NCBI GenBank assembly: GCA_026770705.1
Contig: JANJGN010000008.1
Coordinates: 25,544,001-25,608,000, forward strand
Length of the DNA: 64,000 nucleotides
Source: Isurus oxyrinchus
Lineage: Eukaryota
Direction: 5' to 3'
The first letter of the stretch is position 1. Every line of letters starts with the position of its first letter. The notes below the pieces were generated by a model. It made no database searches. It saw only the letters and a list, made by a program, of their open reading frames with translations, and was not told the DNA's origin. The translations under genes were made by a program, and so were the position numbers. Below are positions 7,088-57,640 of the stretch, one piece after another.

Positions 7088-7450
7088 ACTTACTCACCCA
7101 ATGGCCAATGTCCTGTAAAAAGTTACAGACTGAAATTTTAATTATTCCTGCTTTTTCTTACAATAGCTGGCTCTCTTCCAGATATCAAATCCATTCAATT
7201 TCAGCGGCATAATCCAGGCACTACATTCTATATGGTGGGTAAAATGGCTTCTGCCTCAATCCTTCACTCACAAAGGAATCATAGAGGTCACATAACTCTG
7301 AGGTCACATGACTATGGCAATCTGCTTAGACAACAGGCAACCATGCACAGATGCATTTCTCCAAACAGTAGACACAATGAAGGCTTCACCTGATGAGGGG
7401 TTTTGTTATTTACCTCATAAAGACTTCAAAAAACCTGAGGGAAAAGTTAA

Positions 7451-7672
7451 AAACAAAAAACTGCGGGTGCTGGAAATCCAAAACAAAAACAGAATTACCT
7501 GGAAAAACTCAGCAGGTCTGGCAGCATCGACGGAGAAGAAAAGAGTTGACGTTTCAAGTCCTCATGACCTCAGTTCTGTTGAAGGGTCATGAGGACTCGA
7601 AACGTCAACTCTTTTCTTCTCCGCTGATGCTGCCAGACCTGCTGAGTTTTTCCAGGTAATTCTGTTTTTGTT
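7451..7672. mobile_element. Palindromic Penelope-like terminal-repeat insertion (inverted pLTR dimer)
   Basis: Arms ~7482-7569 and ~7585-7672 are reverse complements. The sequence matches the terminus of the GIY-YIG element at 12268. Perfect 16-bp TSD CTGAGGGAAAAGTTAA at 7435-7450 and 7673-7688. Confidence 0.9.
7572..7610 (+). ncRNA. Putative minimal type I hammerhead ribozyme (variant core CUGUUGA)
   Basis: AGTT-CTGTTGA-A-GGGTC atgag GACTC-GAAA-CG-TC-AACT. Stem I is AGTT/AACT, stem II is GGGTC/GACTC, followed by GAAA and a UC cleavage site. It lies in a Penelope terminus, where such motifs are known. Confidence 0.6.
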
Positions 7673-8608
7673 CTGAGGGAAAAGTTAATCAATCTCAAAT
7701 GGGATCATTGTTTTTCAGGGATGGCTTAGTAGCTCTTTTGAGAACTGAAGATCGCACAGCAGCTTTATGTTGAAGCCTCTCTCAGGCTTCTTCCACTGTG
7801 TTGAAACAATATGAAACTACTCCAACATTCCAAGTATTCATTGGGATGATCATTACTGGTGTGCCTTTGCAGTGCACCAAATCCAAAAATGCTAATGACA
7901 CAATGCCTGCAAATTGGGAAGAGTCATGGTTGGTAGCTGCAGGTGGTCAGAAGTCCTGTCCATTCCTTTTCCACTGACAGAGCAGGGCCTGAAAATTGCT
8001 GACCCCTCTATGCCCTTTTCCGAATCTACAAACTGAGTTTTAGCGAATATAATGCGTGTGCTTTTGCTTAACTGAGCCCTTCTCATTAGGACAACGTAGA
8101 TAAAGATAAACTGACTAGAAACTACTGTCCAGATAGACTCATGGTTTTTTTTTTAACATGGAGGTTAATTTCTTTGATCAACAGCTATGTCAAAGTAGCC
8201 ATTTCTCGTAAATGTGCAAAATTTTATTAATAATTTTTACCATCCAGGTAGATATTCTATGAAGAGCAGCTCTTTATTTTTTGGGTAAAATTTCTTTTGA
8301 TGCAACTCTCGCCTATAAAGCAGTTGGTTAGAGTATCCAAAAGGCATCAGCAGTTTTATGCTCATTTTAACTTTCAAAGCCATAGTAGATTACTGATGCA
8401 ATTGCCTTGACTGTGTAATGAGCTCCTCAGGCAAACAGCTGATTGTCTTTCCTTGACAATAATAGTTAGCACCAGATTTGTGTGTCACTTCTCTCACCCA
8501 AATAAAGCAGTCCTTTTAAAATTATCTAACCAAAAGTTTTATGCCACAATATTTTACTCTAACCAAAGTTTCATATGAAATTTGACTGAGATATTATAAC
8601 TTGTGTCA

Positions 8609-12200: not shown

Positions 12201-12329
12201 TAAAACAGCAGAAGTATCACACTCTTGACAGAACTAAGTGATCCCAAATCCAACAGACCAGATTAAAAACAAAAACAGAATTACCTGGAAAAACTCAGCA
12301 GGTCTGGCAGCATCGGCGGAGAAGAAAAG

Positions 12330-12368
12330 AGTTGACGTTTCGAGTCTTCATGACCCTTCGACAGAACT
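12330..12368 (-). ncRNA. Putative minimal hammerhead ribozyme (variant core CUGUCGA)
   Basis: Minus strand reads AGTT-CTGTCGA-A-GGGTC atgaa GACTC-GAAA-CG-TC-AACT. Confidence 0.55.
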
Positions 12369-12761
12369 TGATTTCGAGTCCAGGAAAGAGTTGAAATATA
12401 AGCTGGTTTAAGGTGTGTGGGGGGGGGGGGGTGGGGGCGGAGAGAGAGAGAGAGAGACAGAGGTGCTTGTGTAGACAAACAAGCAGTGATAGAAGCAGAT
12501 CATCAAAAGATGTCAGTGACAATGGGACAAAAGAACACATAGGTGTTAAAGTTAAAGTTGGTGATATTATCTAAACGAATGTGCTAATTAAGAATGGATG
12601 GTAGGGCACTCAAGGTACAGCTCTAGTGGGGGTGGGGGGGAGCATAAAAGATTTTAAAATATTTAAAAATAAGTGGGAAAAGAAAAATCTGTAAAATTTA
12701 TAGGGAAAAAAAGGGGAAAAAAAGGGGGAAACAGAAAGGGGGTGGGGATGGGGGAGGGAGC

Positions 12762-13091
12762 TCACGACCTAAAGTTGTTGAATTCAATATTCAGACCGGA
12801 AGGCTGTAAGGTGCCTAGTCGGAAGATGAGGTGTTGTTCCTCCAGTTTGCGTTGGGCTTCACTGGAACAATGCAGTAAGCCAAGGACAGACATGTGGGCA
12901 AGAGAGCAGGGTGGAGTGTTAAAATGGCAAGCGACAGGGAGGTTTGGGTCATTCTTGCGGACAGACCGCAGGTGTTCTGCAAAGCGGTCGCCCAGTTTAC
13001 GTTTGGTCTCTCCAATGTAGAGGAGACCACATTGGGAGCAACGAATGCAGTAGACTAAGTTGGGGGAAATGCAAGTGAAATACTGCTTCAC
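12762..13091 (-). pseudogene. Penelope GIY-YIG endonuclease domain (C-terminal part of a truncated ORF)
   Basis: NLVYCIRCSQCGLLYIGETKRKLGDRFAEHLRSV...PVACHFN...EQHLIFRLGTLQPSGLN, the PLE GIY-YIG signature. Confidence 0.9.
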
Positions 13092-13376
13092 TTGAAAGGA
13101 GTGTTTGGGCCCTTGGACGGTGAGGAGAGAGGAAGTGAAGGGGCAGGTGTTACATCTTTTGCGTGGGCATGGGGTGGTGCCATAGGAGGGGGTTGAGGAG
13201 TAGGGGGTGATGGAGGAGTGGACCAGGGTGTCCCGGAGGGAGCGATCCCTACGGAATGCCGATAAGGGGGGTGAAGGGAAGATGTGTTTGGTGGTGGCAT
13301 CATGCTGGAGTTGGCGGAAATGGCGGAGGATGATCCTTTGAATGCGGAGGCTGGTGGGGTGATAAGACCAGATTAA

Positions 13377-13418
13377 AGCTCTGATGATGAAGAGTCATAT
13401 GGACTCGAAATGTCAACT
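13377..13418 (+). ncRNA. Putative hammerhead ribozyme motif (CUGAUGA core)
   Basis: AGCT-CTGATGA-TGAA-GAGTC atatg GACTC-GAAA-TG-TC-AACT. Canonical core, with extra bases before stem II. Confidence 0.5.
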
Positions 13419-13477
13419 GTGTTCCTCTCCGCAGATGCTGTCAGACCTGCTGAGTTTTTCCAGCTATTTTTGTTTTT
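13384..13477 (+). mobile_element. Short Penelope terminal-repeat insertion, opposite orientation to its neighbour
   Basis: Matches the PLE terminus (GACTCGAAATGTCAAC...CAGACCTGCTGAGTTTTTCCAG). Flanked by AGA(C/T)CAGATTAAAGCTCTG 19-bp duplications at 13365-13383 and 13478-13496. Confidence 0.8.
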
Positions 13478-13830
13478 AGATCAGATTAAAGCTCTGCAGT
13501 TCTGCTATATCCAGCCTCAAACAATGGTGGGCAACTAAGCAACTAATGGGAGGAGGAGGCCTTGTGAACGTTCCCATGTTCAATTATGGTAGAGCCCACA
13601 CGAGTGCCTAAGGGGCTGAAGTGTTCACAATCATTTTCAGGTAGGAATGTCGAGTGGATGATCCTACTCTGCCTCCTACTGAGGTCCCCAACATCACAGG
13701 TGCTAGCCTTCAGCCAGTTCAGTTCAATCCATTGGATATTAGTGATGAGTGCACTGAACACAACAAAAGCTATGAGTCCTGATAACATCCTGGCTGTAAT
13801 TGTGAAGATACATGTTCCAAACCGAATCAT

Positions 13831-15530: not shown

Positions 15531-16572
15531 TGATCATGTTATTTAAAAAAATCCTAGCTGTATTTTTGTGATACAATTACAAGAGATTGGACTGTGGAAT
15601 AGAATCAGTAATCTCAAGTCCAATGGCTTTGTCCTATAATTAACCCAGGTGTGGTTAAACCTTTTAGTGCATTGGTGCTTCATAAAGCGACAAAGAAGGT
15701 TAAACTTTCCTGGCAGCTCCCAGTTTCTTCCCAGCTGTTCAGCCATTTCACCATATATTTGCCTGTGTTCATCAAGCCAAGAGGCTGCATGTTTGCATCT
15801 ATCGCAAGTTTCTTACTCGTCTCAAATAGGGATGGGTGGGCAGCATCACAATTAAGCTTTCTCAATGGAATTATTGACTTGTTCTTCAAGTGTAGGAGCC
15901 CATTTATCAGCCCACTGGTCAATTTTGTCTATAATCTGCCTCCAGTGATTCAGTCACTGCTTGTCTGGTTTTAATTAGTTTTAACATACTTCTGTGTTTT
16001 CTGTCCTTTTTTAGTTAAAATAGCATGAGTTGAGGTCATCAACTGGCTGTTAGTTTGGGCGAGGCGGTGCTGGAAAAAAGGCTGTGTAATGGAATTGAAT
16101 TAACACACAGTTAAAGTATTGTAGAGGAAGATTTCCAATGTAGAGTATGTACAATCAAATTAAAAATCCAATTTAATGCACTGATTTTTAAAGTCACACA
16201 GATCCCTTGCATTATTATATGCAGTGTTTGCAGTGTTATTGGTGTTCCATTATTAAAACATTGCTTTCTTGATGGAATTGTCTGGTCTGTTCTCCTACAG
16301 TTACCTAGACATTAACTGTGAAGTAACTGGCTTGATCTCAGCTGGACTATCAAGACAGTTGTGCCAGATTCTTCTCCACATGGACAGGTGGATAACTAGA
16401 GCTGTACCTACATAACTCTTGATGGTCAGATGCATGGCAATATTGCCAGGGGCACAGATGTTCATCTGTTGCCTGCTTTTTCATTGTGGTATGATATGCA
16501 GACAACTTGGATGTATCAACAGGATACATGGAAACAAAAAGTAATTATTTTAAAACTGAGTTGCAAAACATT

Positions 16573-17333
16573 GGACAGAATTTTGCCCTCGGTTGGCGGG
16601 CGGACCTCACCGGCTCGGCGGTGGGCGGGCAGCCAAACTCCGCTGCTGAAACGGGGCTGGCTGCCATTTTGAGTGGGTGAGCCAATTAAGGCCCGCCTAG
16701 CGGCCTGCCCGACAGGAAGTGCTATGAGCTTCCTGTGCGGGGTCAGGGGGGTTGGGGTGGTGGGGGGTGGGGGGGGGGGGGGGGGGGGGGGGGGGGTGGA
16801 GGGATTCCCCATCTGTCAAAGTGCGCTCTTTCGTGCATATGTGCGAAAAAGTATACATCTACCTGAGACTAAGTGCTGTCTCAGGGACATTACTGACAGT
16901 GTCAAAAACATTAAAAATAGAAAATTATAAAAATGATTAACACGTCCCCCTCATGTGACAATGTCACACGAGATGGGGCGTGTAATAAAAAGGACATAAA
17001 CTTTATTGAAGTTTTTAAAAAACAGACATGAAACCTCATCCCGCCAATGGATGAGGTTTCATGTATTATCAGAAGCCTGCTGGGGCTCCTGGCCTGCCCA
17101 CCAGCCTTAAGGTTGGACGGGGAGGGTCTTTAATTATCTTAATGACCCTGTCAATGGCCTCAATTGGCCATTGACAGGTCGGCAGGCAGACAGCTGATTT
17201 TGCTGTCCGCCCGCCTTCCTAAAAATTTATAGGGACCGGAATGACATCGGGGGTTCCTCCCGCATCATCCCGTGTCATTTTCCCATTGGCGAGCGGGCCC
17301 CGCCCCCAAACCGCCGACAGGAAAATTCTGGCC
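16573..17333. mobile_element. Harbinger-like MITE (subfamily B) with expanded poly-G
   Basis: TIRs GGACAGAATTTTGCC / GGAAAATTCTGGCC and TSD ATT. Internal hairpins are shared with the other B copies. Confidence 0.9.
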
Positions 17334-18386
17334 ATTATTTTATTTTGCTTTTAACACCATATATATTATTTCGGTATCCGATCAACTTTAAGGGATGCAA
17401 ATCTACTCATGGTAATTCAGCTCCTTTGTGTTATTGGGCTCAGTAACTCCTCGCATAGTCAATACATTATACTATTGATTGTATTTTTACTGGTATTAAT
17501 CCAATTTCCTCACGTTGTCAAACTCAGTAACTCCTCCCACCTATCATTCTACATTACTGATTGCAGTTTTACCAGTGTTAATCCAGCTCCTACTATCAGC
17601 CATTGTACTACTTCTCTGTTGTGCTTGTTTGAAGTTGTTCATTAACAATCCCACAACTGCTGTAAGGGGATTGCATTTATTCTCCTGAAATGCCTCTAAG
17701 CCAAGGGGAATAGAGGAGACAGTAATCATTCAGTAAACAATGATTCTTCAAATCTTAACGTGAATTAAAATCTATAATCCATAAGAGAATTGAAAGAAAC
17801 AATTACTTTATGATGTGAAGTACTTCACCTTCCCATAGGCATATTGCCCATTGATTTAGACAGATATTATGGCTTTATACAAGTAATGTTGTTTTTAAGC
17901 CAGGTAATATGTCTTACATTTATCTTCCTTTTGATTTAAATTCACTTAAATGCAGTGTTGCATCTGTGGCAGTGGGAATTAGATACTAACTTGCACATGT
18001 AGAAGTTTGGAGAGTACGTATTGAAACTATTTAAAATAAACCCCAGTCTGACAAGTTCTGATTGCTTATTATTTGACCCTGCTAAAAGGTCATTGTAGTA
18101 ACTAGATGTGTTGACCCTCCCTCACTCATCATGTGATGCAATTATGGGGGCTTCGACCAATAAGCTTTTTGGGAGGGTAATCCTGTGGGCGGGGCTTCTG
18201 ACAGACTGATCGCGTCTAGCGTGCAAGCTCCTCTACATGTCTCCTAAATAAAATTTAGCCTTTTCTTCACCAAACCTGCCGCTCCATCAAGTTGTTACAT
18301 TTGGCGACGAGGATAAAACCGAGCTCTGCGGCATACTTCACCCTGGTTGGTGTGAGTAAAACGAAGGTGAACAATACTTACCAGTC

Positions 18387-20898
18387 ATGCTACTGTTTGG
18401 AAGAATCAATTCATATGATGCTAACATTGAAGATTGGAGTCAGTATGTCGAGCCACTTGGGTTCTATTTCATTGTGAACAAGATTACTGCTGAAGAAAAA
18501 TGTAAAGCTATCCTGCTGAGTGCATGTGGAAGCAAAATGTATAATCTGATTCAAAACCTGACTACCCCGAACGCACCCAGTTCTAAGTCGTACAGGGAGT
18601 CACTGGAACTTTCCGCCCAAATCACCTGTGATTGTGCAGCGCTCCAAATTTAATTCGAGAGTTTGCGCCCTGGGAAAGTCCATCGCTACCTTTGTGGTGA
18701 ATCTGAAACAGTTAACTGAATACTGTGGGCAGAATTTTCCCACCGTTGGGGGCGAGTTGATGGGCTGGCACGTGCGGATGCACTTCCGATCAGAGGCGTG
18801 GCGCCATATTACGTGGGTGGGCCAATTAAGCGCTGTGCACTCCCTATGCAGGCGAGGGGGTAATCCTTAAAATCGAGAGTGTGGTCTTTCACGCATGCGC
18901 ACGAAAAAGCGCACTCATCTCCCTGAGGCTAAGTGCTGCCTCAGGGAGATCGGCTCTACTTGCAACAATATTAAAAGTAGAAAAAAAATTCCCTTACATG
19001 TCACCTCATGTGACAATGTCACATGAGTTGGGACATCTTCATAATTTCCATAACAACTTTATTAAAATTTTTAAAACGCTACTTGAAACCTCATCCCGCC
19101 GCTGGATGAGGTTTCATGTTTTTTCTATTTGCCACCGGGGCTCCTGGTCTGTCCACCAACTTTAAGGTTGGACGGGCAGGTCCTTTAATTGCTTAATTGA
19201 TCCTGTTAATGGTCTCAATTGGCCATTGACAGGTCAGTGCACGTGCAGCTAATTTTGCTGTGCCCCCACCTTCCTGAAAATTTAAATGGGGCACGGTGAT
19301 GTCTGGAGTTCCGCCCGACGTCATCCCGCATCATTTTATGCATCGGTGAGTGGGCCCTGCCCCCTGCTCGCCAATGGTAAAATCCTGCCCTGTGTGTTTG
19401 GGGATGCCTTGAATGATATGCTGCAGGACAGACTTGTGTGTGGAGTCAAGGACAATGCCCTGCAGCACTGCTTGCTAGCCAAATCCAACATTGAGTTCAA
19501 GCGCACCCTAGAACTTTCTCTATGGAAAGTGCCATGAAAGACTCGCAGGCTTTGCAGCATGTGGATAATGGTGTCGTACTTCATATTGTGCAGGAGCCTG
19601 CCGTTGAGCAAGCGTGAAAAACAGAACAGCAGATTTTAAACGCAATACTGTGCCCACTACACAAAGACTTAGGAAGCCTAATGGCAACTCACCAGCTAAG
19701 ATAAGCATTTGCTACAGAAATAGAGGAAATCACGGTGTAGCCGCTTGAGATTCAAAGAGTCAGAATGTAATTATTGCCACAGGAAAAGGACACCTGGTTA
19801 GGCAGTGAAGAACAAAGGATAGGCAACCAGAAAAACAACAAACAAATCTGATTGAGCTAACTGAGACAGCAGAGGCTGAGGCTGCTACTACTAATGTATA
19901 CTCTTTGTACCATATGATTGCTGTTAAACCTGAGGCCATTGCAGTGACACTGCAAGTGAATGGCAAGCAACTGCAGATGGAGGTGGATACCCGAGCTTCA
20001 ACTACTGTTGTTGGGGAGCACATGTTCAAGTACCTCAGTGAAGGGAGTCAGCCATTGACATTGGAGCAGACATCTGCCAAACTGCAAGTTTACACTGGGG
20101 AACCCCTCATGTCAAAGGCGTTGCTGCTGTCCCAGTCTGCTACAAACAACAGACAACTCAACTGTCTGGTAATCATAAAGGGGGAGGGCCCCAGCCTTTT
20201 GGTTGGAAATTGACTGCAGAAAATAAAATTTGACTGGACAGAAATATTCCATTTGAAGTCTGATGGAATCCCAGAACTCTTGAAGAAATATGACACTGTT
20301 CTTCAAGACTAATTGGGAAAACTGAAGGGCATGCAAGCTAAAATGCACATCGATCCTCAGGTAACACTATGTTTCTTCAAGGCCAGGCCACTAAAAAATA
20401 TGGAAGCAGAGTTGTGAAGCTTGGAAAACCTGGGAATAATTCAGCCTGGCCAGTTTTCTGAGTGGGCCACACCCATAGTCCATTCCAGTTGTCAAGTCAG
20501 ACCAGACCATATGTATATGCAGTGACTACAAACTGACAGTTAACAAAGCAGCAACGTTAGACAAATAACCCATTCCTGGAATCGATAATTTGTCCGCCAG
20601 GTTAGCAGGAGACAAGTCATATACAAAACTGGACATGAACCAATTAACAAATTAGAATTGGATAGCACGTCAGGAGAATATGTGACAATTAATACCCATG
20701 AAGGCCCCTACAAGTACACCCGGTTACTTTTTGGAGTTTCATCAGCATGTGCTATTTTTCAGCGAACCATGAAGAGTCTCCTTCAGGGACTTCCATGTGT
20801 GATCATGTACTTAGATGACGTTCTCATCACTGGACTGACCGAAGCTGAACATTTAGCCAACCTTGAAGATGTGCTGAGAAGATTTATGGAAGCAAGTG
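18387..20898 (+). pseudogene. Element B gag, protease and N-terminal RT (disrupted)
   Basis: MLLFGRINSYD...WSQYVE (gag), LQDRLVCG, MEVDTRAS (protease), YKYTRLLFGVSSACAIFQ...YLDDVLI (RT). Confidence 0.88.
18727..19390. mobile_element. Harbinger-like MITE (subfamily B) inside element B gag
   Basis: TIRs GGGCAGAATTTT / AAAATCCTGCCC and TSD TGT. Removing it restores the gag reading EYCVFGD. Confidence 0.92.
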
Positions 20899-21230: not shown

Positions 21231-21910
21231 AAGCAGAATTTTGCCCTCGGATGGCGTGTGGGCCTCACCGGCTCGGCGGCGGGTGGCCAGCCGACCCCCG
21301 CCATTGAAACGGGGCCCGCCGTCATTTTAAGTGGGCGGGCATCCCTGACAGGAAGCGCTATGCCTTCCTGTTCTGGGGTGGGGGGGAGGGATTCCCCATT
21401 TGTCAAAGCTCATGTGCACGAAAGAGTGCACTTTTTCCTGAGGCAAAGTCCTGTCTCAGAGAGAATACTGACAGTGGAAAAAAACTTTAAAAATAGAAAC
21501 ATTAAAAAATTATTAACATGTCCCCCTCATGTGACAATGTCACACGAGATGGGACATGTTAATAAGGAACACATAAACTTTATTAATTTTTCACAAAATG
21601 GTCATGAAACTTCATCCCGCCAGTGGATGAAGTTTCGTGAATAATCAGAAGCCCGCTGGGGCTCCTGGTCTGCCCGCCAGCCTTAAGCTTGGATGGGCAG
21701 GGTCTTTAACGATCTTAATTAGCCTGTCAATGGCCTCAGTTGGCCATTGACAGGTCGGCGGGTGGACAGCTGATTTTGCTGTCTGCTCGCCTTCCTAAAA
21801 ATTTAAATGGACCTGGATGACGTCGGAGATTCCTCCCGATGTCATCCGGCATCATTTTCCGCTCAGCGACCCGGCCCCGCCCCCAAATCACCGAGGGGAA
21901 AATCCTGGCC
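21231..21910. mobile_element. Harbinger-like MITE (subfamily B) in the 5' LTR of element D
   Basis: TIRs AAGCAGAATTTTGCC / GGAAAATCCTGGCC. Absent from the 3' LTR at the equivalent site (~26828). Confidence 0.9.
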
Positions 21911-22644
21911 AGTGAGTTTATTTTTTTACCAAAGGAAACATGAGCAAATGAAAAGATTTATATTTTGAGAAAGGTAAAGTTCCAAAGACATAGTAGAACA
22001 ATGGAATTTGCATTAAAAGGGAAAAACCTGTATAAAGGTGTATGAGGCTATGTGTCAAGGAGGAAAAGGCATTATAAGATCTAACAAAAGTGTAAAAAGC
22101 TTCCAGCTTCTATGCATCAAGTTGCTGTCTACAGGAACCCAAGCTAAGAAAACTCACTTTGAATTCCCCTATCCAGGGTATTGTGTTGCTTTGCTAAGGC
22201 CTGTTTGAATCTATTTGTTTTTTACTGTTGACTTAACGGAGGTGTAACTGGGAGCCAGATTAATTAGGGGTTTTAGGAGATATTATTGTAGTAATTTGTC
22301 AACCTATGTATATACTTGAAATCTTTTCTTTTGTTAATAAATGCTTAATTTAGTTTTCTAAAAAAGTTCTGGAATCACAGTAGTCTTTTTACTTCTGAAT
22401 TCAGGGTACGCATCTCAAAATAAAATACAAATTGCAAAACTGTCGTGACTGCGTGATTGAGTTTCCCTCATGGATTTGATCCGCTTGGCACACATCATCT
22501 GCCATGTCATAACAAATTGGGGACACTTTGTGGGATATTTGAAATTCCTTGATTGGCCTGGAGTAGGTGAATCTTAAGGTTATGAATAAGAGAAGCACTT
22601 TAAATTCAAGAGTTTGCCTATTTTAAAGTGGTGAGGTTGCAAAA

Positions 22645-25600
22645 ATGGCTTTATCCATGGCTAAAACTTCTTTGGAACTTGAAAGCTATAACTCTGATTG
22701 GGTTACATAAAGTATCTAAGGATAAGTTAACAGAGTTGGCGGAAACGTTACAGTTGAGGTTACCTTTAGGGGCAAAGAACTAGAGGCAGCAGAAAAAGGG
22801 AAAAAGACGAATTATACCAAAAAGAAATGGAAATGCGAAAACTTAATCTCCAGAGGGAAAAGTTAGCAAGGGAAGAGAGAATAAAGGAAAGAGACAGAGA
22901 GAATAAAGGAAAGAGACAGAGTCCCAGCTTAAAAAGTTGGATTTTAAAAAGGAGATATCAGATGCTGAGGAATGTTCTAATGATGAAAAAAACCTTTAAT
23001 CTAAAACCTAGTGGGGAGATGTTTAAATTTGTTCAAGCTCTTCTGAAGTTTGAGGAAAGGGATGTGGAGGCATTTCTAATTTCATTTGAGAAGATAACTA
23101 AACAAATGAAATGGCCGGAGGAAAATTGGACATTATTGTTACAATCTAGGTTGGAGGGTAGAGCACGTGAGGTTTATGCTTCACTGTCAGAAGAAATGTC
23201 GGTGGACTATCATGTGGTAAAAATGGTTATTTTGAGTGCATATGAGTTGGTGCCTAAAGAATACAGGCAGAAATTTAGGAATATGAGAAAACAGCCTGGG
23301 CACTTATATTGAACTTGAGAAAGTAAATGAAAATTGACCGGTGGATACGGGTATTAAAGATAGAGACAACATATGCAACTCTCAGAGAAGTAATTCTTTT
23401 GGAATAATTTAAAGATTCAATTCTATCAGTAATGAGAACTCATGTGGAAGAACAGAGGGTTAAAATAGTAAGACAAGCAGCAGAGATAGCTGGTGGTTAT
23501 GAGTTAGTTCATAGATCTAAACAATTTTTCATCACCTTTTAAAATCAGAGAAGGATAAAAAGTGGGAAGGTGAAAGGAAGTTCGGTGGTCAGGAAAGAGA
23601 AGAAGTAGGTGGAAATTTCCAGGAAGTGTTTTTTCTCAGACTAAAAAGGAAGATGCTGAATGTAGAAGTGACACTTGAAAATGGAGACATTTTCATTGTA
23701 ATAAAGTTGGACACACAAAGTCAGTATGTTGAAAATTACAGGGAATATCTGTTAGGATTATTGGGATGCAGAAGAATTCTGGAAGTAAAAGTACTGTGGG
23801 TTCTGAAGTTCGGGCATAGGAAAAACCAATGGTTAGTGTACAGTTAAAATAGGAAGAATCAGTGATAGGTAAAGAAGTGGGAATGTGTTCACAATTTACT
23901 GAGGAGAGTTCTGAGGAGCAGGTTGCTGACGTGTTTAGAGGTTTTGTATGTGAAGGGGAAGTCTTTCCATGTGTACAGGGTGGAGTAGGTAAATATGTTA
24001 AAATTTTAAGAGACAAATGGGCTAGTGAATCCTTAATGTTATGGGATAGTTATATTTGCTCAGAAGGATATTGCAAAAACAGATGATAATAAGTGGGGTT
24101 CATGGAGATGCTAAACCTATTCCATTGTGGAAGGTAAATTTAAAGAGTGAGTGGAAAATATGTAAGGTGATTGTTGGAGTAGTGGAAAAAAATGCCCATT
24201 GCAAGAATTCAATTTATCTTAGGTAATGATATAGCTGGGTCACAGATGTGGGTGATGCCTATGGTAGTTGAGCAGCCCGTAGAAGTGTTTTCAACAGAAG
24301 TGTTACAGAAAGAGCATCCTGGATTGTTTCCAGATTGTGTGGTAGCAAGATCACAAGCTCATAGGTTGAAACAGGAAAGATAGGAAGTTAAAAGGCAGGG
24401 AGAAGGTGTGGAAGTTCAATTAACTGACACTGTTTTTGATAAGATTGTTCAGGAAGAAAAAATGGAGGGTACTGCAGCTGAGATATTTACATCAAGATAG
24501 TTGGTAGAGTTACAGAAAGTGCATATGCAAATATGACAGTGATATCATACAGCTTACTCATAAAAATAGGCAGAATCTATTCCAGAATGTTATAACCTTA
24601 AAGGTAATGTGTAAATGAGAAAGTGGTGGCTGTATCATGTTTCAGCTGATGAAAACTGGAGGGAAGTACATCAGATTGTTATACCATTTGGATATAGAAA
24701 TGAGATCCTAGGAATAGCTCATGAAATTCAATTAGGGGGACATTTAGGAATTAGAAAGACAGGCAAAAATATAAAAAATATTGTTGTTGGCCTGGATTGC
24801 ATAGGGATGTAGTCAAATTCTGTTGAACATGTCGCACCTGTCAGGTGATAGGGAAACCACAAGCAGTGATTAAGCCGGCACCTTTAATTCCAATTCCAGC
24901 ATTTGAAAAACCTTTTACTAGGGCCGTGATTGATTGTGTAGAACCTCTCCCTAAGACTAAAAGTGGAAATCAGTACTCACTGACAATACTAGATGTGTCT
25001 ATAAGGTTTCCTGAAGTGATATCTTCGAGAAATATTACAACAAAGAAAATTCTGGAAGAATTGACTAAATATTTTACAAGATTTGGTTTACCAAAAGAAA
25101 TACAATCAAATCAGGATTCAAATCTCATGTCACAGCTGTTTAAGGAAGTAGTGAACAGTTTGGGGATTAAAACGGTTTAAGTCAACAGCTTATCCTGAGT
25201 CACAAGGGGCTTTGGAACAATGACATCAAACTTTAAAAACTATGATGAGGGCATATCCCACAGGATTGGGATGGGGGAATTCCATTCTAGTTATTTGCTA
25301 TTAGGGATGTTCCTAATGCATCGACTGGTTTTAGTCCTTTTGAACTAGTCTATGGTCATGAGGTAAGGGGACCACTGAAAATGATTCATCAGAAATTGGT
25401 GGGTCAAAATTCAGAAAGTACTCTCCTGGATTATGTATCATACTTCAGAGAAAGGGTGGACAGAGCATGTGAGTTAGCTAGAGAACATTTAAAGATATCA
25501 CAGCAAGTGATGAAAGTAAAGGCAGACAGGGAAGCTACAGCCCATGGTTTTCTTTTGGGGGCAAAAGTGTTAATTTTGTTACCAGTACTAGGTGACTCAT

Positions 25601-26100
25601 TAAAGGCACTGTTTAGTGGGCCTCACAGGATTGAAAAGAACCTGAGTGAAGTAAATTATTTAATAAATACTCCAGAAAGAAGGAAGAGGCAGACAACATG
25701 CAGTGAAAACATGCTTTAAAAGTACTTTGACAGGGAAGAGAACCAAAAGGAGGTATTAGTGGTGGTAGATAAGGAAAAAAAGGTAGAAATGAAGGATTCT
25801 GCACTTAATTTTACTCTAATCAAATTGGATAATGAGGGGGGTACTTGAAAATTTACATGTGAATATTGAGTTACCTTCCAGACAAGTGTCAAATTGATTT
25901 GGAGAAGCTATTGCAGTCACACAAAGCTATTTGTGTGAATAATCTGGAGAGGACAAATTTAACTATACATGATGTGTGTATGGAAGTGTCATCTTTGCTA
26001 AGGCAACATCCTTATATATTAAATCTGGCAAAGTTATCACAAGCACAGAAAGAAATTGAATTCATGCTTCAAAATGACATCATTGAATCTAATTGCAGAT
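22645..26100 (+). pseudogene. Element D gag (SCAN-like capsid), protease, integrase and RT start
   Basis: FEERDVEAFLISFEK...WTLLLQSRLEGRAREVY (gag), ILRDKWAS (protease), AHEIQLGGHLG, PFTRAVIDCVEPLPKTKSGNQY (integrase), then RQHPY (RT start). The rest of RT and RNase H are absent. Confidence 0.88.
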
Positions 26101-26383: not shown

Positions 26384-27420
26384 TCGGACACTGGGCCGGA
26401 AGGATTTGTACACATTTTGTTATGTCAATGCATGCACCTGGTAATGTAAGATGGGTTAAGAAAATGAAGGCGTCTTTTTAAATTATGACAGTTCATTTTC
26501 CCAGAAGGAGGATAGTGTCATGAAAATATAACAATTCTCATAATATTATTGTGATTTATTGTAAAGGTAGGTTAATAGTGGGTTTTAATAGCTTCTGTGT
26601 GTGTGTTGGGGGGGGGGGGCGCGGTGCGGATTTAATTGAATTGGAGAAAACTGGTCTGGAAGGTTTGAGTCATCAAAAAGAAGCTAGGTTTGAAATGTTA
26701 AATATGTAAATATGGCTGAAGTTTTAGAACGTGAGGTGTAAGGAAAATTTGCATTTTTAGATAAACTAGTATAGTTTGAGTTTCAGAGATGGTAAGATGT
26801 TACATCTAGCCAGAAGCTAAACCAAACAGTGTGTTTATATTTTCCCAAAGTTTACTGATAATAAGAGCACAATGGAAAGATTTATGTTATGAGCAAGATA
26901 AAGTTCTATATTGGAACAATGAAATTTGCATTAAAAGGGAAAAACATGCTTAAAGAGTCTGAGGCTATGTGTCAAGGAGGAGAAGGCATTCTGGGATCTA
27001 ACACAAGTGTGAAAAACCTCTGCCACTGTGCATCAAGTTGCTGTCTACAGGAACCAAAGCTGAGAAAACTCACTTTTAATTCTCCTGTCCAGGGTATTGT
27101 GTTGCTTTGCCTGGGCCTGTTTAAATCTATTTGTTTTTATTGTTTTCTTAATGGAGGTGTAATTGGGAGCCAGATTAATTAGGGATTTTAAGAGTTATTA
27201 TCATAGTAATTTGTAGGCCTATGGATATGCTTGAAATCTTTTCTTTTGTTAATAAATATTTAATTTAGTTTTCTAAAAATCTCTGAAGTCGCGGTCGTCT
27301 TATTATTTCTGCATTCAGGTTATGTATCTCAAAATAAAATACAAATTGCAAAACAGTTGTGATCAAGTTTCTCTTGTGGATTTGATCCACCTGGCACACA
27401 TCATCTGCCACGTCTTAACA

Positions 27421-29284
27421 AGGTGTGCATTTGAAGCAAGAAAAATGCACATTTCTAGCATCAGAGATAACCTACCTAGGTCACAGTGTGGACGCTATAG
27501 GGTTGCATCCTGCTGAAGACAAGGTCCCAGCAATTAAAGATGCACCATCACCCTCTAGTGTGACACAGCTTAAATCTTTGCTAGGTATGATAAATTACCA
27601 TAGCCGCTTTTCACCTAATCTATCTACTGTACTAGCACCACTAGATTTGTTGCTGAAGAAGAACCACTGCTGGTCATGGGGTTCACAGCAAGAAGACACC
27701 ATTGTAACAATAAATAAACTGCTTCATTCGTCATGCTTGTTGATACGTTATGACCCATCTAAAGAGCTGGTGTTGGTGTGTGATGCTTCTCCTTGTGGTG
27801 TAGGAGCTGTTCTGTCACATTAAATTGAGGACAGATCAGATAGATCCATTGGCTATGTTTCAAGAACACTCTCCCAAGCTGAAAAGGGCTACTCTCAGTT
27901 GGAAAAAAGGAGGATTGTCAATTGTCAAGAAGTCTCACCAATACCTACACGGGCAACATTTTACAATTGTGTCTGACCAAAAGCTGCTGACAGGTTTGTT
28001 CAGTGAAGGCAAACCTATTCTGCCTATAGATTCAGTGAGAATCCAACATCAAGCTTTGATGCTGTCAGCTTACGAGTACACATTCATGTACTGCCCTGGC
28101 TCACAAATGGCCAATGCAGAAGTACTTAGTTGTCTTCTGTTACTGGGTAGTCTTGTCAATACACCGGTTCCACAAGAGTTAGTGTTTTTGGTAAATTTTC
28201 TGGATTCATCATCTGTATGTGCCAAGCAGATCAAGAATTGGATGAATAGAAATCCAGTACTGTCAAAATTCAAAGACTTTGGGCAGAATTTTGTCGTTGG
28301 TGAGCAGGGGGCGGGGCCCACTCGCCGATGCGTAAAATGATGCAGGATGACGTCGGGCGGAACTCCCGACATCATCCCGCCCCATTTAAATTTTTAGGAA
28401 AGCGGGCCCGCAGCAAGATCAGCTGCGGACTCACCGACCTGTCAATGGCCTCAATTGGCCATTGTCAGGAACATTTAAGCAACTAAAGGGCCTGCCTGCC
28501 TACCTTAAGGTTGGCGGGCAGGCCAGGAGCCCCAGTGGCAAATAGAGAAAACATGAAACCTCATCCACTGGCGGGATGAGGTTTCATGCAGGGTGTTAAA
28601 AAGTATAATAAAGTTATTATGTAAGTTATGAACATGTCCCATCTCATGTGACATTGTCACGTATGGGGGACATGTTAGGGATTTTTTTTTCTCTATTTTT
28701 AATCTTTTTAAAAGTGTCAACAATCTCCCTGAGGCAGCACTTAGCCTCAGGGAGATGTGTGCACTCTCGCCTTTGGGGAATCCCCCCCCCCCCCGTGCCC
28801 ACACAGGAACCCCAAGCGCTTCCCACCGGACGTCACGCTGGATGGGCCTTAATTGGCCCACCCACGTAAAATGGCGGTGGGGCACCACTTCTCTGGCGGG
28901 GAACGGCTCCCCACCTGCCGGAGATTGGGTCAGGCCCACCCGCCCGGCAGGCAGAAAATTCTGCCCTTTGTTTTACAAGGATGGCCAAGAACGCTTGTGT
29001 CTGATGACTCGCGACTATTTTATACCAGAAACACTGAACTGAGTTGTCAAGATGGAATTTTGCTGCGGGGTTCAAGAGTCATGGTCCCATCACAGGGGAG
29101 AGAGTCACTCTTGGCAGAGCTCCACAGTGCACACCCAGGCATATTGAAGATGAAGATGCTGACACGTAGCTATGCCTTGTGGCCAGGAATAGACAGTGAC
29201 ATCAAGAGCATGGTTAAACACTGTTCCCTTTGCCAGCAACATCAGAAGCTACCTGTTTCAGCTCCACAGAGACTTGATTTGTAA
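27421..29284 (+). pseudogene. Element B C-terminal RT, RNase H and integrase zinc finger; integrase core deleted
   Basis: ITYLGHSV, LVCDASPCGVGAVLSH (RNase H) and LHSAHPGI...CSLCQQ (HHCC), followed directly by a terminal RLDL*. Confidence 0.85.
28281..28966. mobile_element. Harbinger-like MITE (subfamily B, reverse orientation) in element B pol
   Basis: TIRs GGGCAGAATTTT / AAAATTCTGCCC and TSD TTT. Confidence 0.92.
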
Positions 29285-34619: not shown

Positions 34620-34861
34620 AATAGATAAAAACAAAAAACTGCAGATGCTGGAAATCCAAAACAAAAACAGAATTACCTGGAAAAACTCAGCAGGTCTGGC
34701 AACATCGGCGGAGAAGAAAAGAGTTGACTTTTCGAGTCCTCATGACCCTTCAATAGAACAGTTCTGTTGAAGGATCATGAGGACTCGAAACGTCAACTCT
34801 TTTCTTCTCCGCCGATGTTGCCAGACCTGCTGATTTTTTCCAGGTAATTCTGTTTTTGTTT
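34620..34861. mobile_element. Palindromic Penelope-like terminal-repeat insertion (inverted pLTR dimer)
   Basis: Arms ~34658-34759 and ~34761-34862 are reverse complements with essentially no spacer. Imperfect TSD TACAAATGTGAACA / TACGAATATGAACA. Confidence 0.9.
34722..34798. ncRNA. Back-to-back hammerhead-like motifs on both strands
   Basis: Plus strand 34760-34798: AGTT-CTGTTGA-A-GGATC atgag GACTC-GAAA-CG-TC-AACT. Minus strand 34722-34759: GTT-CTATTGA-A-GGGTC atgag GACTC-GAAA-AG-TC-AACT. Each carries point changes. Confidence 0.5.
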
Positions 34862-35429
34862 TACGAATATGAACACTAGGACCCCACAACTCACTTTGGC
34901 TGCTTGTGTTATAATTAAATCAGGCCAATGAAAAATTAACCTGGAGAAAGAATTAGCATAAAATTCATTTTGAAGGTGTTAGCTGCAGAAATCAGAAGTA
35001 AAACCCCTCTTTGCTGTCCATATAACCATAGGCCTGGGCCCTAACCCTCTTGACCTCTTCTCTAAAGCCTGAAGTCCTCCTGAATGGCTCTTTTGGACAT
35101 TGACCATCCTGAATAATGGGCTACTCAACCAATGAGCTCAGCACCCCCCTCCCCCCATCCCCCATCCCTCCCCAACCCCGCTTAGAGCCCAGAGCCCCAT
35201 TGATTAACATTCTCTGCACCCCCCTCTCCCAGGCTCAGGCTAAGTGTGCTGCCATTTTGCCTTTCATTGTTTTTTGGGGGTGGGAATCTCAGGGAAGTCA
35301 GTGCATTTTTACTGCAAGGCTCATGGCAGAGCACATTTTTTTATGTGACAAACTTCAGGATGTAGTTAAAGTTTTCTCTGAAATCCTACTGGATCCTTTT
35401 AATCAGGAAGATTAGAGCCTCTGACTTCT

Positions 35430-42870: not shown

Positions 42871-43041
42871 GAGGATTCAGACAATCAAAGTCATCAGAAG
42901 ATTTGGACAGTTTGAGGGGCCCTGGTTTGGCATAATCGATAAATGTCAGCTCCTTGACATCTTCTGCTGCTTTGATGAGGTTGAGGTCGACAGGTGCAGT
43001 TCAGCTCAGAAGAGAGAATTCCTGATTGCGAATAACACATA

Positions 43042-43753
43042 GGGCAGAATTTTGCCGTCAAAGAGGAGGGGGCGGGGCCCGCTCGCCGAAGTGTAAAATG
43101 ATGCGGGATGACATTGGGCGGAACCCCCGATGTCATCCCACCTCATTTAAATTTTCAGGAAGGCGGAGGTGCAGCAAAATCAGCTGTGCGCCCGCCGACC
43201 TGTCAATGGCCAACTGAGGCCATTGACAGGATCATTTAAACAATTAAAGGACCTGCCCGTCCAACCTTAAGATTGGCAGGCAGACCGGGAGCCCCGGCGG
43301 CAAATAGAGAATACATGAAACCTCATCCACCGGCGGGATGAGGTTCCATGCAGGGTTTTAAAACGTTTAATAAAGGTATAGTGTAAATTATGAACATGTC
43401 CCATCTCATGTGACATTGTCACATGTGGGGACATGTTAGGGATTTTTATTTTCTATTTTTAGTCTTTTTCAAAGTGGAAGTGATCTCCCTGAGGCTGCAC
43501 TTAGCCTCAGGGAGATGTGTGCCCTTTTGTACGCATGCGCAAAATAGCACACTCTCGCTTTTGGGGAATCCCCTCACCTGCACAGGGAGTGCAGAGCGCT
43601 TCCCACCGGACGTCACGCTGGGCGGACCTTAATTGGCCCACCCACGTAAAATGGCAGCAGGGCCTGCTTCTCCGGCAGGGATCAGCTCCCCGCACGCCGA
43701 AAATTGGGTTGGGCCCACGCGCCCGCCTGCCCGACAGCCAGAAAATTCTGCCC
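43042..43753. mobile_element. Harbinger-like MITE (subfamily B, reverse orientation)
   Basis: TIRs GGGCAGAATTTT / AAAATTCTGCCC and TSD ATA. Confidence 0.92.
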
Positions 43754-48200: not shown

Positions 48201-48541
48201 GTGTCAGGCCAGAAATGATGGTGCTGAGGAGAAGAGTGAGGCCAAGAATCCTCTATGTTTTAACTGCCACAAGGCAGGACACAACTGTGCTGATTGTTGG
48301 ATGTTATAGGAAAAACCTATGGGATTTATTGGAGCACACAAACCCCACACAGAAAATGGGAGTCAGACAGAGAGCATAGCAGATCAGGCAATGTCTTTGA
48401 CTACAGCAGCAAATCCCTGATGGTGCATTATTCTGAGTACAGGTGAGTTTGAAAAAATCCCTGAGGGTTACAAGGGTTTTGTACCAAAAGGAAGAATGAC
48501 CATGTTTCCCCAGAGCAAGGTGAGTGAGCCTATAGTGATAC

Positions 48542-49803
48542 AAAAATAAAAAATGCTGGAAAAAACTCAGCCGGTCTGACAGCATCTACGGAGAGAAAGA
48601 CAGAGTTAACGTTTCGAATCCGTATGATTTCTTCAGAGCTAAAGGAAGTTAGAAATGTGATGAAATATATACTGTTTAAGGGGGGGATGGAATGGGTGAA
48701 GCTGGGTAGAAGGCCAGTGATAGGTGAAGGCAAAGGAGAGATTGCAAAAGATGTCTTAATTAAAAGGTGAAAGGGTTGTTAGTAGTGGTGGTACTAGCTA
48801 AAGGAGGCACGATTGGTGACATTAGGTGTGGAAAGTAGAATGTGATAATGGCAGGACCAGGGTAAGCACCATGGAAAGCGACAGATGGTCCGAGTAGGGT
48901 TGGGGTAGGGGGAGGTGGTGGGAAAAAAGATCGAAAAGGCTAAAAGCTGGGGATAAAACGATGAATTAAAATAGAAATAAATTTTAAAAACTATAATAAT
49001 GAAAGTAAGTGGGGGGATAAATAAATAAATAATTTTACAAATGAATATAGAAAAAAGGGGGGGATCAAAAAGAGGTGGGGATGGAGGAGAGAGTTCATGG
49101 ACTGAAGTTGTTGAACTCAAATATTAAGTCCGGAAGGCTGTAAAGTGCCTAGTCGGAAGATGAGGTGCTGTTCCTCCAGTTTGCGTGAGCTTCACTGGAA
49201 CAATGCAGCAGGCCAAGGACAGACATGTGAGCATGAGAGCAGGATGAAGTGTTGAAATGGCAAGTGACAGGAAGTTCTGGGTCATGCTTGCGGACAGACC
49301 AAAGGTGTTCTGTAAAACAGTCACCCAGTCTGCGTTTGGTCTCTCCAATGTAGAGGCAACCGCAAGGGAGCAGCGAATGCAGTAGACCAAATTGAGGGAA
49401 GTGCAAGTGAAGCGCTGCTTCACTTGAAAGGAGTGTTTGGGCCCTTGGATGGTGAGGAGGGGGTAAGTAAAGGGGCAGGTGTTGCACCTTCTCCGATTGC
49501 ATGGGAAGGTACTGTGGGAGGGAGTTGAGGTGTTGGGGGTGATGGAGGAGTGGATCAGGGTGTCCTGGAGGAAACAGTCCTTATGGAATGCCGACAGTGG
49601 GGTTGAAGGGAAGATATGTTTGGTGGTGGCATCATGCTGGAGTTGGCAGAAATGGCGGAGGATGATCCTTTGAATGCAGAGGCTGGTGAGATGAAAAGTG
49701 AGGTCAAGGGGTTCCCTATTCTTGTTCTGGGAGGGAGAGGACGGTGTGAGGGCAGAGGCACAGTAGATGGGTCAGACACGGTTGAGGGCCCTGTCAACCA
49801 TCA
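48542..49803 (-). mobile_element. 5'-truncated Penelope-like element inserted in element E
   Basis: Frameshifted GIY-YIG (NLVYCIRCS / LYIGETKRRLGD) at 49124-49502 and a terminal repeat at 48542-48640. TSD ATAGTGATAC at 48532-48541 and 49804-49813. Confidence 0.9.
48604..48640 (-). ncRNA. Putative hammerhead ribozyme motif (canonical CUGAAGA core)
   Basis: Minus strand reads AGCT-CTGAAGA-AATC atacg GATTC-GAAA-CG-TT-AACT. Confidence 0.5.
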
Positions 49804-52800
49804 ATAGTGATACTAAGGGATACAGGGGCCAGCCAAGCTCTACTGCTAGTTAAAGGCATGACCTTTCCGCTGGAGAGTGCAGTACCTGCCAAGATGTTGG
49901 TAAAGGGGATTAAAGGAGGCTGCATGCCCATCACCTCATACCGGATGCACCTGGAATACACACTTGTGTCAGGACCGTTGACTGTGGGAGTTGTCCCCAG
50001 TTTGTCTGTGGACAGAATCGACATGCTCCTCAGCAATGACCTGGAGGAAGTGTTAGCAATCCCAGTAGTATCAGGGAAGCCGAGTGAGGTCAGGTAGACA
50101 GAACAGCTGCAGGTAAATGCGTCCAACATTTTCCCTGAAGGTATGGTAACCCAGTCTATGACCAAACGAACTCTGTCAGAGGAGGCTGAAGTGGCACTGC
50201 AGACAGATGAACCTATTTTCTGGTTATCTGAGACCTTTCTCGGAAGTCCAGAAGATGTTAAGGAGGTCAATAAGTAGGTCTTCCTCGGTTGTGGCTCAGG
50301 AATCTGACCTGTTGTCAAAAAAAGTTAGCTCAGACTGCCTAAACCAAAGCTGAGGCAGAGGCAATCACTGAGTGCTGCTACATTAAAAAGAAATGTTATA
50401 AGGAAATGGAGACCCTCCCTCACAGATCTGCAAAAAGGAGTGGACAGTGATCCACCAGGTAGTGGTGTTGCTGAGGTACCCTGGGGAAATATTACAGCTA
50501 GTACACAAAATCCTGATGGCTGGGCATGTTGGTATATGAAAAACCTAAGCCCACGTCAGCCAGCATTTTTATTGGCCACACCTCCACACGGATGTAATAA
50601 GGTTTTGCAGAACCTGTCACACCCGCCAGGTTGTGGGACAACCCCAAACTGCAATAAAACCGGCACCTATAACTCCTGTGCCGGCTTTTGGGGAACCGTT
50701 CAGCAAGGTGTTAGTAGACTGTGTGAGGCCCCTACCAAAAACATAAGGGTTTATCAGTAAATCCTTACCATCATGGATGTGGCTACCCGTTTCCCAGAGG
50801 CCAAAATAGTGCAGGGGGGATTAACACAATTCTTTACCCTGTATGGACTTCCCACCGGATCCAGTCAGATCAGGGTTCAAATTTCATGTCCTGAATATTC
50901 CAGGAAGTCGCTACCAGGGACTTCCACAATGAGTCCATTGGTTTTACTTTGTTTAAATTGGTTATGAACAACAAGTGAGAGGTCCTCTGAAGTTAATCAA
51001 GGAGAGATTTTTAGAAGAGAAGGAATTCTCCATGTTAGACAATGTCACCCTGTTCCGTGAGTGACTCATGAGAGCTTGTGATGTGGCTTGAGAACATGTA
51101 AAAATCTCCCAAACTGCTATGAAGAAACAGGCAGAAAAATATGCCAGGGCCCAAGCCTTTCAGCCCAGAAATTATGTGCTAGTGCTCCTGCCAATACCAG
51201 GTGAACTGTAAAAGCCCCAGCCAGTGACACATACAGAGTAGCAAAGAAGCTTTGGGAGGTAAACTATATAACTGACAACCCGGGCTGCAGGAAGAAGCAA
51301 AGGTTGTGTCATGTTAATATGAGAAAACAATATCACAGCCGAGAAGGGACAAGCAGGTAATGGTCTGTGCGATAACAACAGATGTGGAGGACGAGGGGAG
51401 CAGAGGGAATATATTGGAGGGAAATGTGGGTGAAGCCCACATTGAACCCCCTACAACACAAAAATTCTAGCAAATTTGGGCACCATATTCACCCGTCTAA
51501 ATACAGAACAGCAAGGAAACCTGACAAGGCTGCTCACTGCATTTAGAGACGAGCCAGACTGCACTAATTCAACTCTACATGATGTGGATGTGGGAGAGAC
51601 CACTCCCATAAGGCAACATCCCTACCATCTCGGTCCAGAAAAGCTTGCCCTGGTTCGGGAGGAAATTAGGTACACGCTGGAGCGCCAACTACTAGAGCCT
51701 AGCAGCAGTAGCTGGAGATCCCCAGCTGCACCCGTGCCCAAGTCAGACAGTTCCACAAGGCTCTGCATTGACTACTACAATGTTAATGCAATGACCAGTG
51801 CCGACTCCTGGCCAATACCCCACCTAGAAGACTGCATAGATAGGGCAGGTAATGCAGCCCACATTACAAAGATAGATTTACTCAAGGGATACTGGCAGGT
51901 ACCCTTGACCGCTTGTGTGAAGGACACCTGCAGCCTCGAGACACCAGATGGATTATACCAATGTCGAGTCGGGCCATTTGGACCCTGCCACCTTTCAAAT
52001 GCTAATGAACCAGGTATGACAGGCTTACTCAATTGTGTAGTGTACCTAGACGACATCCTAGTGTACAGTGACACCTGGGAAACTCAATTAGAACAAGTGG
52101 AAGCCCTCTACCAGAAATGACAGTCATTGACCAAGCGTTCAATCTCATAAAGGGTGAATTTACTAAGACTTAGGATAAATGGTGGGTCAAAGGCAAGTAC
52201 TGGCCAGAGCTGCAAAGGTACAAGCAATAGCACTGTTCCCCATTCCCACAGCAAATCGGGGAAATCATGAGATTTATAGAGATGTGTTGGTTCGACGCCA
52301 AGTTCGTCCCAAACTGTAGCTATCCTGCTCTGAGACCTACTACAGAAAAAAGAAAAAGTAGTATGGACCGAGAAATGCCAGACAGCTTTCAAGGAGCTGG
52401 AAGCTGTCTTAATAAACACACCAGCGCTAACAGCTCCAGACTTTAACCAGGCATTTAAAGTAGCCATCGATGCTAGTGGCCTCGGGGTAGAGGCTGTCCG
52501 TCTGCAGGAGGACGAATCAGGAATAGAGACACCAATGGGTTACTTCTCCAAAAAACTGTACAAACATCAGAAATAGCATTCCACTGTAGAAAAAGAAACC
52601 CTAGGTTTATTACTGGCTCTCAAGCGCTTTGAGATATATGTCTGAAATGGGTATAGAGAGAGGGACCACAGTCCACACCAACCACAACCCTTTAACCTTT
52701 GTAGAGAAATTCAAAACCCAGAAATCAAGGTTATTCCATTGAAGTTTGTTTCTCCAGCCATATCATCTAAAAATAGCCCACGTTTCAGAGAAATCCAATG

Positions 52801-57094: not shown

Positions 57095-57640
57095 GAGTCT
57101 GGAGTTCTGATCACCATGTTATAGGAAGGATGTGATTGCACTGGAGAGGGTGCAAAGAATATTTAGCAGGATGCTACCTGTACTGGTGGGTCTGAGCTAA
57201 GAGGCAAGATTGGATAGGCGGGGGTTGCTTTCCTTGGAGCAGCGAAGATTGAGAGGGGACCTGATAGAAATGTATAACATTATGAGGGATCTAGATAGGG
57301 TGGATAGAAAGGCACTTTTTTCCATTAGTAGAGGGGTTAATAACCAGGGGACACAGATTTAACGTAAGAGGTAGAAGGCTAAGAGGGTAGTTGAGAAATA
57401 TTTTCACCCACAGGGTGGTGAGAGTCTGGTATTCTCTGCCTGAAAGGGCGATTGAGTCAGAAACTCTCATAACATTTAAGAAGTATTTAGTTATTCACTT
57501 GCATTGCCATAGCCTCCAGGGCTATGGGCAAGTGCTGGAAAATGGGATTAGTGTAGTCAGATCTTTGTTGAGTGGCGTGGACACAATGGGCCTAATGGCC
57601 TCCTTCTGTGCTGTAAATGTCTATGAGTCCATGGATCTAT
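57095..57640 (+). mobile_element. CR1 3' fragment inserted antisense into the large CR1
   Basis: Reads YRKDVIALERVQ..., LRGDLIEMY, FTHRVVRVWYSLP, then a 3' tail of CTATG-type repeats. Confidence 0.85.

Follow-up and report, generated by a model that had tools for sequence, protein, structure and literature searches.

Can a hammerhead ribozyme exchange the adenine at position 6 of its catalytic core for uracil and still be carried forward by a multiplying retrotransposon? The question is raised by position 7572 of the window (the whole stretch of 64,000 nucleotides of Isurus oxyrinchus DNA analysed here), one of five loci at which an earlier note had recognised hammerhead-like motifs, three of them with T in place of A6. 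We answer it below from the anatomy of the motifs, their genome-wide copies, the ends of the insertions and the changes that the motif underwent after U6.

Hammerhead motifs of a Penelope-like element

The motifs are minimal type I hammerheads (HHRs) residing in the pseudo-LTR (pLTR) of a Penelope-like element (PLE) that encodes a reverse transcriptase (RT) and a GIY-YIG endonuclease (Table 1). On the plus strand, the 7572-7610 motif comprises stem I (AGTT), the core CTGTTGA (T at 7579), an extra A and stem II (GGGTC/GACTC), followed in that order by GAAA, CG, TC and AACT, with the cut predicted between 7606 and 7607. It thus possesses the hallmarks of minimal PLE hammerheads, namely stems I and II, the extra 9.1 base, the G10.1-C11.1 pair, a palindromic 15.2-16.2 and an NUH site, and departs from the canonical core C3U4G5A6N7G8A9 by its U6.

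Table 1. Coordinates and strands of the Penelope-derived features of the window
Position	Strand	Feature	Remarks
7442..7569	-	Inverted partner arm of the 7572 copy, 5'-truncated within the hammerhead core	
7572..7610	+	Minimal type I hammerhead, U6 U7 core	Arm starts at the first base of stem I
7611..7675	+	Penelope tail 3' of the 7572 hammerhead	3' ends grouped at +95-99 and +121-124 from C3
12266..12329	-	Tail of the 12.3-kb copy	
12330..12368	-	Hammerhead with U6 C7 core CTGTCGA (youngest subfamily)	
12369..12761	-	pLTR 5' of the 12.3-kb hammerhead	
12394..12400	-	TATA-like block about 30 nt 5' of stem I	Putative promoter element
12762..13394	-	ORF end with GIY-YIG endonuclease, 5'-truncated	Pfam PF01541, E=1e-4, 22.9 bits (cut-off 22.6)
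13377..13483	+	Older A6 hammerhead and tail, damaged (3-nt duplication, CpG decay)	
34620..34759	-	Inverted partner arm of the 34760 copy	Core with U6 and private G5>A
34760..34862	+	U6 U7 hammerhead and tail	Private stem II mismatch at 34774
48536..48640	-	Oldest-type A6 hammerhead and tail, GTT site, 2-nt loss in stem II	
49050..49771	-	Decayed ORF 3' end of the older A6 copy	85.7% identity to 12716-13366

The T claimed at position 6 is present at 7572, 12330 and 34760 (cores CTGTTGA, CTGTCGA and CTGTTGA, respectively). The accompanying statement that these loci keep stems I and II, GAAA and the TC site applies to 7572; at 34760-34798 (+), stem II has a private G>A that the note does not mention. 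Canonical cores had been assigned to 13377 and 48604; both do have A6, and both are damaged older copies, the 3-nt duplication of the former being placed after the core and stem I of the latter (48640 to 48604, minus strand) containing a C.A mismatch. As to the proposed ACGT palindrome, 15.2-16.2 is indeed palindromic, 13377 being an exception in that it carries ATGT. Two further arms came to light beyond these five loci, both on the minus strand, at 34759 to 34722 (core CTATTGA) and at 7569 to 7442. In the fold-back insertions at 7442-7675 and 34620-34862, the arms join at or near the start of stem I.

A descriptor of the U6 hammerhead matched three times in the window versus twice in total over 100 shuffles, and the reversed-pattern controls gave 0 matches in the whole genome. 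The covariance-model search, suggested in the earlier note as a check, returned no hammerhead family among its 11 Rfam matches at E<=1; the miRNA matches in the window lie below the gathering score and are spurious, because the fold-back insertions are inverted repeats.

The host element is best seen at 12266-13394, where the GIY-YIG ORF end, the pLTR, the hammerhead (near the 3' end of the pLTR) and the tail follow one another on the minus strand. Intact ORFs of 925-926 aa with RT and GIY-YIG have U6 in both flanking repeats. In the 926-aa ORF at locus L043, RVT_1 is matched at E=7e-8 and GIY-YIG at E=9e-4, the latter under the Pfam cut-off that the window fragment exceeds. The tandem unit is 3.35 kb long, and over this length adjoining units have 1 mismatch. 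As in PLEs with an endonuclease (EN+), a single ORF combines RT with a C-terminal GIY-YIG, the pLTRs form tandems or partial tandems, truncated copies are inverted (34 of 60 short arms) and an optional tail is present; the 3' ends form two clusters about 26 nt apart. The protein also has a Cys linker (C-x4-C-x2-C) 5' of GIY-YIG, a Cys-rich RT-EN linker being a feature of the Neptune/Nematis type (Craig et al. 2021, PMC8557442). Scanning the intact unit for a second hammerhead revealed none. At L043:6144-6231, an 88-nt stretch may be a 5' UTR intron recalling that of D. virilis Penelope, with a donor-like CAG/GTAAT in the tail and an acceptor-like AG directly before the first ATG; no spliced joint for it is listed in the assembled contigs.

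Apart from this element, the window contains a dispersed repeat family (16561-17346, 18828-19399, 21233-21924, 28273-28978 and 43031-43753; about 550-730 bp, copies 72-83% identical), a perfect 261-bp tandem duplication at 61513-62034 (100% identity; either recent or an artefact of assembly), and decayed ORF fragments at 22770-25719, 27419-29284, 51446-52120 and 55778-57904, which resemble Gypsy-type gag/pol and CR1-type LINE RT.

U6 as the master state of the lineage

Using exact patterns in which the flanks of the young family were fixed and positions 6-7 left free, we found 76,286 matches in the genome (about 5.0 Gb), counted as motif arms rather than insertions, and 132 when A6 was required. 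Among the first 100 matches listed, 98 were U6, 2 were C6 and 0 were A6 (80 UC, 17 UU, 1 UG and 2 CU at positions 6-7). With the older flanks, U6 occurred in 7,826 of 15,174 matches, and the U6 matches listed were UU in 100 out of 100. The higher copy counts of U6 are due in part to its younger age. Young-flank A6 copies sit on varied backgrounds, and six of the 12 A6 loci examined have a second arm, which carries U6 in all six; these A6 copies are sporadic reversions. Together, these data show that U6 is the master state of the expanding lineage, and with the intact tandem ORFs they bear out the suggestion that the variant belonged to an actively transposing lineage. Descriptor searches that require CUGANGA would miss this family, which among the hammerhead-like ones observed in the genome is the largest.

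A hidden lineage of A6 revertants was considered and rejected: the CUGAGGA copies (9 of the 100 A6 matches listed, all 9 examined, in 8 regions) lie on differing backgrounds or at inversion junctions. The recurrence of this core on different backgrounds (L396-L403) was perhaps templated by a nearby inverted CTCA, and makes no lineage. In the assembled RNA contigs of runs labelled organisms A-D, T>A at position 6 is not listed at the 10% threshold, a weak hint that U6 is shared; another contig listing is devoid of even the common C>T adjoining position 6 and gives no reading on T>A.

The order of events was approached by clustering 173 long copies into 13 groups and building a tree from 11 consensuses (130 copies). 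The A6 subfamilies are the oldest (4.8-5.8% non-CpG divergence from their own consensus), and the U6 subfamilies of at least five copies range from 4.1 down to 1.5%, the latter being the value of the youngest group; one U6 group of 2 copies stands at 6.3%, with a large error. U6 is first seen on an otherwise unaltered motif, and changes in stem II (A-U to G.U), loop II, H17 and N7 (both U to C) come later. The subfamily consensuses, whose construction the earlier note had recommended, form one ladder from A6 to U6 with the U6 consensuses nested after A6, and this ladder shows U6 to have arisen once from older A6 subfamilies and then to have persisted. For the older subfamilies, CpG decay was dismissed as the source of the U/C at position 7: U7 is the master state of the older U6 subfamilies (100 of 100 listed), and C7 is later than U7.

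Two side observations concern the same copies. An A6 side subfamily (L246-L275, most of these 30 loci having one spacer and A6 in common) appears to have acquired its GUC site separately from the U6 lineage. The youngest subfamilies have a spacer 5' of stem I (window 12369-12393, minus strand; L043:6036-6059) that has come step by step to resemble the 3' half of the hammerhead, with two 3'-half blocks in swapped order, CAACTCTTT and then GGACTCGAAA, which could be a stem II decoy, an alternative substrate strand or a relic of template switching.

Insertion ends and the RNA template

The 5' ends were mapped on 100 arms picked on their tail alone, the arms of one inversion not being independent. 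Forty ends lie well into the pLTR, 4 at -29..-12 from C3, 34 at -11..0 from C3 (among them 2 long copies whose spacer differs), 13 within the motif, 1 at the predicted cut and 8 downstream; the cut site is spanned by 91 of the 100 arms. Genome-wide junction patterns (three mismatches required upstream; about 94,000 exact tails) yielded 66 raw starts at the base before the cut, 231 at the cut and 108 at the base after. Inspection of 30 loci per class left 18, 9 and 12 clean junctions, respectively, so that the corrected numbers are about 40, 69 and 43, which are not separable at such a sample size and neither establish nor refute a small excess at the cut. The apparent peak at the cut site was rejected, the raw excess being mostly microhomology and deletion. 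None of 31 A6-era arms has a clean start at the cut, and U6 is therefore not the cause of the uncut templates. We conclude that the insertions derive from uncut RNA; cleavage seems to have no influence on the insertion templates.

Upstream of stem I, the block at 12394-12400 is TATA-like, as judged from the TATA and initiator consensuses. Over nine subfamilies, this block varies in 1 of 14 columns versus 23 of 24 in the spacer, and because it is kept while the spacer turns over, we infer that transcription would start at stem I. A splice acceptor at the start of stem I was also considered; a single loose junction-like match among all loci was unconvincing.

Position 6 and self-cleavage

Published data on other ribozymes bear on the cost of U6. 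In a type III hammerhead scanned pairwise, the mutants of the CUGA region all had low activity and were unrescued, except for the C3-G8 swap (PMC9901934). A natural A6C variant retains low activity (PMC3088659), and in a second ribozyme A6C cleaved at 3.55e-6 versus 0.3 per min at 0.3 mM Mg2+ and was rescued by Mn2+ (PMC7151607). The portions of the literature surveyed contained no measured rate for A6U. By analogy, U6 likely slows the self-cleavage of the hammerhead. Minimal PLE hammerheads are weak already, even as dimers (PMC4209133); dimeric folding has been proposed in print for such motifs. As for the anole element, its RNA inserts normally in vitro when the HHR is dead, the HHR cleaves with protein only and no RNA-seq ends map to its site (PMC11167929).

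In silico, A6 and U6 consensuses show no trend: in both, the hammerhead shape is 2.8-6.0 kcal/mol less stable than the MFE structure. Restoring A6 in the youngest consensus allows a 5-bp helix to form that joins the core to the cut site; U6 breaks this helix. A stabilisation by U6/C7 of an inactive hairpin, via 6:13 and 7:12 pairs, was rejected (pair probability about 0).

One could imagine that U6 is fully compensated, by dimer formation together with the element protein or by another cation, leaving a ribozyme equal to its A6 ancestor. This idea agrees with the Mn2+ rescue of A6C (PMC7151607), the protein-assisted anole HHR (PMC11167929) and the helix broken by U6, but we regard it as unlikely: second-site rescue of CUGA mutants did not occur in the type III pairwise scan (PMC9901934), the ends of the insertions are not clearly in excess at the cut, and A6 occupies 44 of the 44 PLE-HHR supplement rows compared (PMC4209133).

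Constraint on the motif after U6

We then compared nine U6 consensuses (149 copies; groups of fewer than 5 excluded). After U6, four of the seven free hammerhead positions changed (N7, H17 U>C and two sites in loop II), as compared with 1 of 31 constrained positions (A-U to G.U; Fisher p=0.002) and 29 of 39 flanking columns (p=6e-10), which argues that the fold is not decaying, the signal coming from five variable columns of a single lineage whose consensuses were obtained by clustering. G5, G8, G12 and A13-A15.1 are unchanged in every consensus, and the catalytic and pairing positions are fixed through the later subfamilies. Judged from these consensuses, hammerhead-shaped constraint continued after U6, in the pattern expected of a maintained hammerhead. 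Stem covariation across copies, to which the earlier note had looked, is absent in the strict sense: the subfamily consensuses have no compensatory double changes in the stems, only one-sided changes that preserve pairing. Looking for more distant families yielded 3 matches, all decayed.

That the hammerhead has been useless since U6 and has simply had too little time to decay is very unlikely, and we disfavour it. The missing covariation and the few changes inside the motif (5 columns in total) are in keeping with such a relic, but the same interval changed the flanks at 29 columns and the constrained hammerhead positions at one.

A weightier possibility, which we nevertheless rather doubt, is that U6 killed catalysis and that the hammerhead sequence was retained for a non-catalytic task at the RNA 5' end, as a promoter or start-site element or as a structure for RT binding or pausing. 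The Penelope tail, which is not a ribozyme, varies in 1 of 32 columns and is as conserved as the hammerhead, so that the constraint may be that of an overlapping promoter or of protein binding. A dead core would further suit the loss of orders of magnitude in Mg2+ upon position-6 changes (PMC7151607, PMC9901934), the uncut insertion templates, the location of the motif where transcription is inferred to begin (in D. virilis, the promoter is internal; PMC2377424) and the proliferation of Naiad PLEs without a canonical HHR (PMC8557442). It is at odds with the nature of the altered positions, which are precisely those that hammerheads leave free (N7, loop II, H17; p=0.002), with the U to C change of H17 having come after U6, and with the constancy of the G and A residues listed above.

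Proposed role of a slowed ribozyme

With evenly balanced confidence, we propose that a Penelope-like master lineage fixed U6 once and multiplied from uncut RNA, its ribozyme being slowed and the fold still selected for residual or assisted cleavage. First, as the copies and the tree show, U6 became the master state from A6 ancestors. Second, transcription would start at about the first base of stem I, under the TATA-like block; the RNA would therefore have the hammerhead at its 5' end and lose about 35 nt on cutting. Third, judging from the insertion ends and from the mechanism of the anole element, copying would begin at two tail sites and run back through the intact hammerhead, most often stopping at the start of stem I. 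Fourth, fast cleavage would destroy uncut templates, and a slower core would therefore cost little or even help. Fifth, the catalytic and pairing positions were held fixed in the later subfamilies. Sixth, this constraint may reflect residual catalysis, the rest of the fold likely being under selection because slow or protein-assisted cutting keeps some role.

The earlier note had reasoned that the variant is either tolerated or that cleavage is dispensable. This either/or is better taken as both together, given the apparently uncut insertion templates and the hammerhead-shaped constraint after U6: the best reading is that a weakened ribozyme would not be needed for making insertions, yet its fold would still be under selection. 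More tentatively, and with some doubt, the lineage may have come to brake its own ribozyme, U6 turning the hammerhead at the RNA 5' end into an off-by-default switch (gated by the element's protein or by a cation) or into a purely structural start-site module, thereby letting more uncut RNA act as template and driving the expansion. If true, selection on a retroelement would have tuned down or repurposed a ribozyme active site, with the ancestral states preserved in the genome. The function of PLE hammerheads is an open question (PMC8557442, PMC11167929). This genome keeps A6 and U6 subfamilies in an ordered series, differing at a handful of positions, a natural experiment, so that a few short RNAs can test whether successful elements require cleavage, bear its loss or profit from its slowing.

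Comparison with known systems

The literature surveyed reports neither a natural A6U hammerhead nor the present Penelope family; the PLE hammerhead variants of Lunse et al. 2017 may include such a case. The closest relatives are the minimal type I hammerheads of metazoan PLE pLTRs (Cervera & de la Pena 2014, PMC4209133), which share the pLTR location, the 4-bp stem I, the extra base between 9 and 10.1, G10.1-C11.1, the palindromic 15.2-16.2, the lack of stem III, the U-rich 5' flank and the occurrence mostly as solo or inverted copies. The difference lies in the U at position 6, the consensus given there being CUGANGAH, with A6 in all the supplement rows compared; the core variant described in that article is U3-A8.

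Poseidon of Anolis carolinensis (PAc; Frangieh et al. 2024, PMC11167929) similarly has tandem RT and GIY-YIG units, two clustered 3' ends that define a tail, templates that are predominantly unprocessed RNA and no ends at the HHR site; the two 3'-end clusters found here recall the pair of sites at which RT starts in the anole element. The differences are that the consulted part of that article mentions no position-6 change for PAc, that the ORF starts within stem II in PAc and about 170 nt downstream here, and that the present element has a Cys linker of the Neptune/Nematis type. With the EN+ PLEs of that type (Craig et al. 2021, PMC8557442), it shares the C-terminal GIY-YIG, the Cys-rich RT-EN linker, partial tandems, inverted 5'-truncated copies and the tail, a likeness of clade by features rather than phylogeny, and it differs by its non-canonical core.

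Finally, the A6C hammerhead of phage Bcep176 (PMC3088659, PMC7151607) likewise has a natural pyrimidine at position 6 in an otherwise intact core. It is a single phage case with C, for which low activity in Mg2+ and good activity in Mn2+ were measured, whereas the present variant, known from sequence alone, is a U fixed in a very large eukaryotic retroelement lineage.
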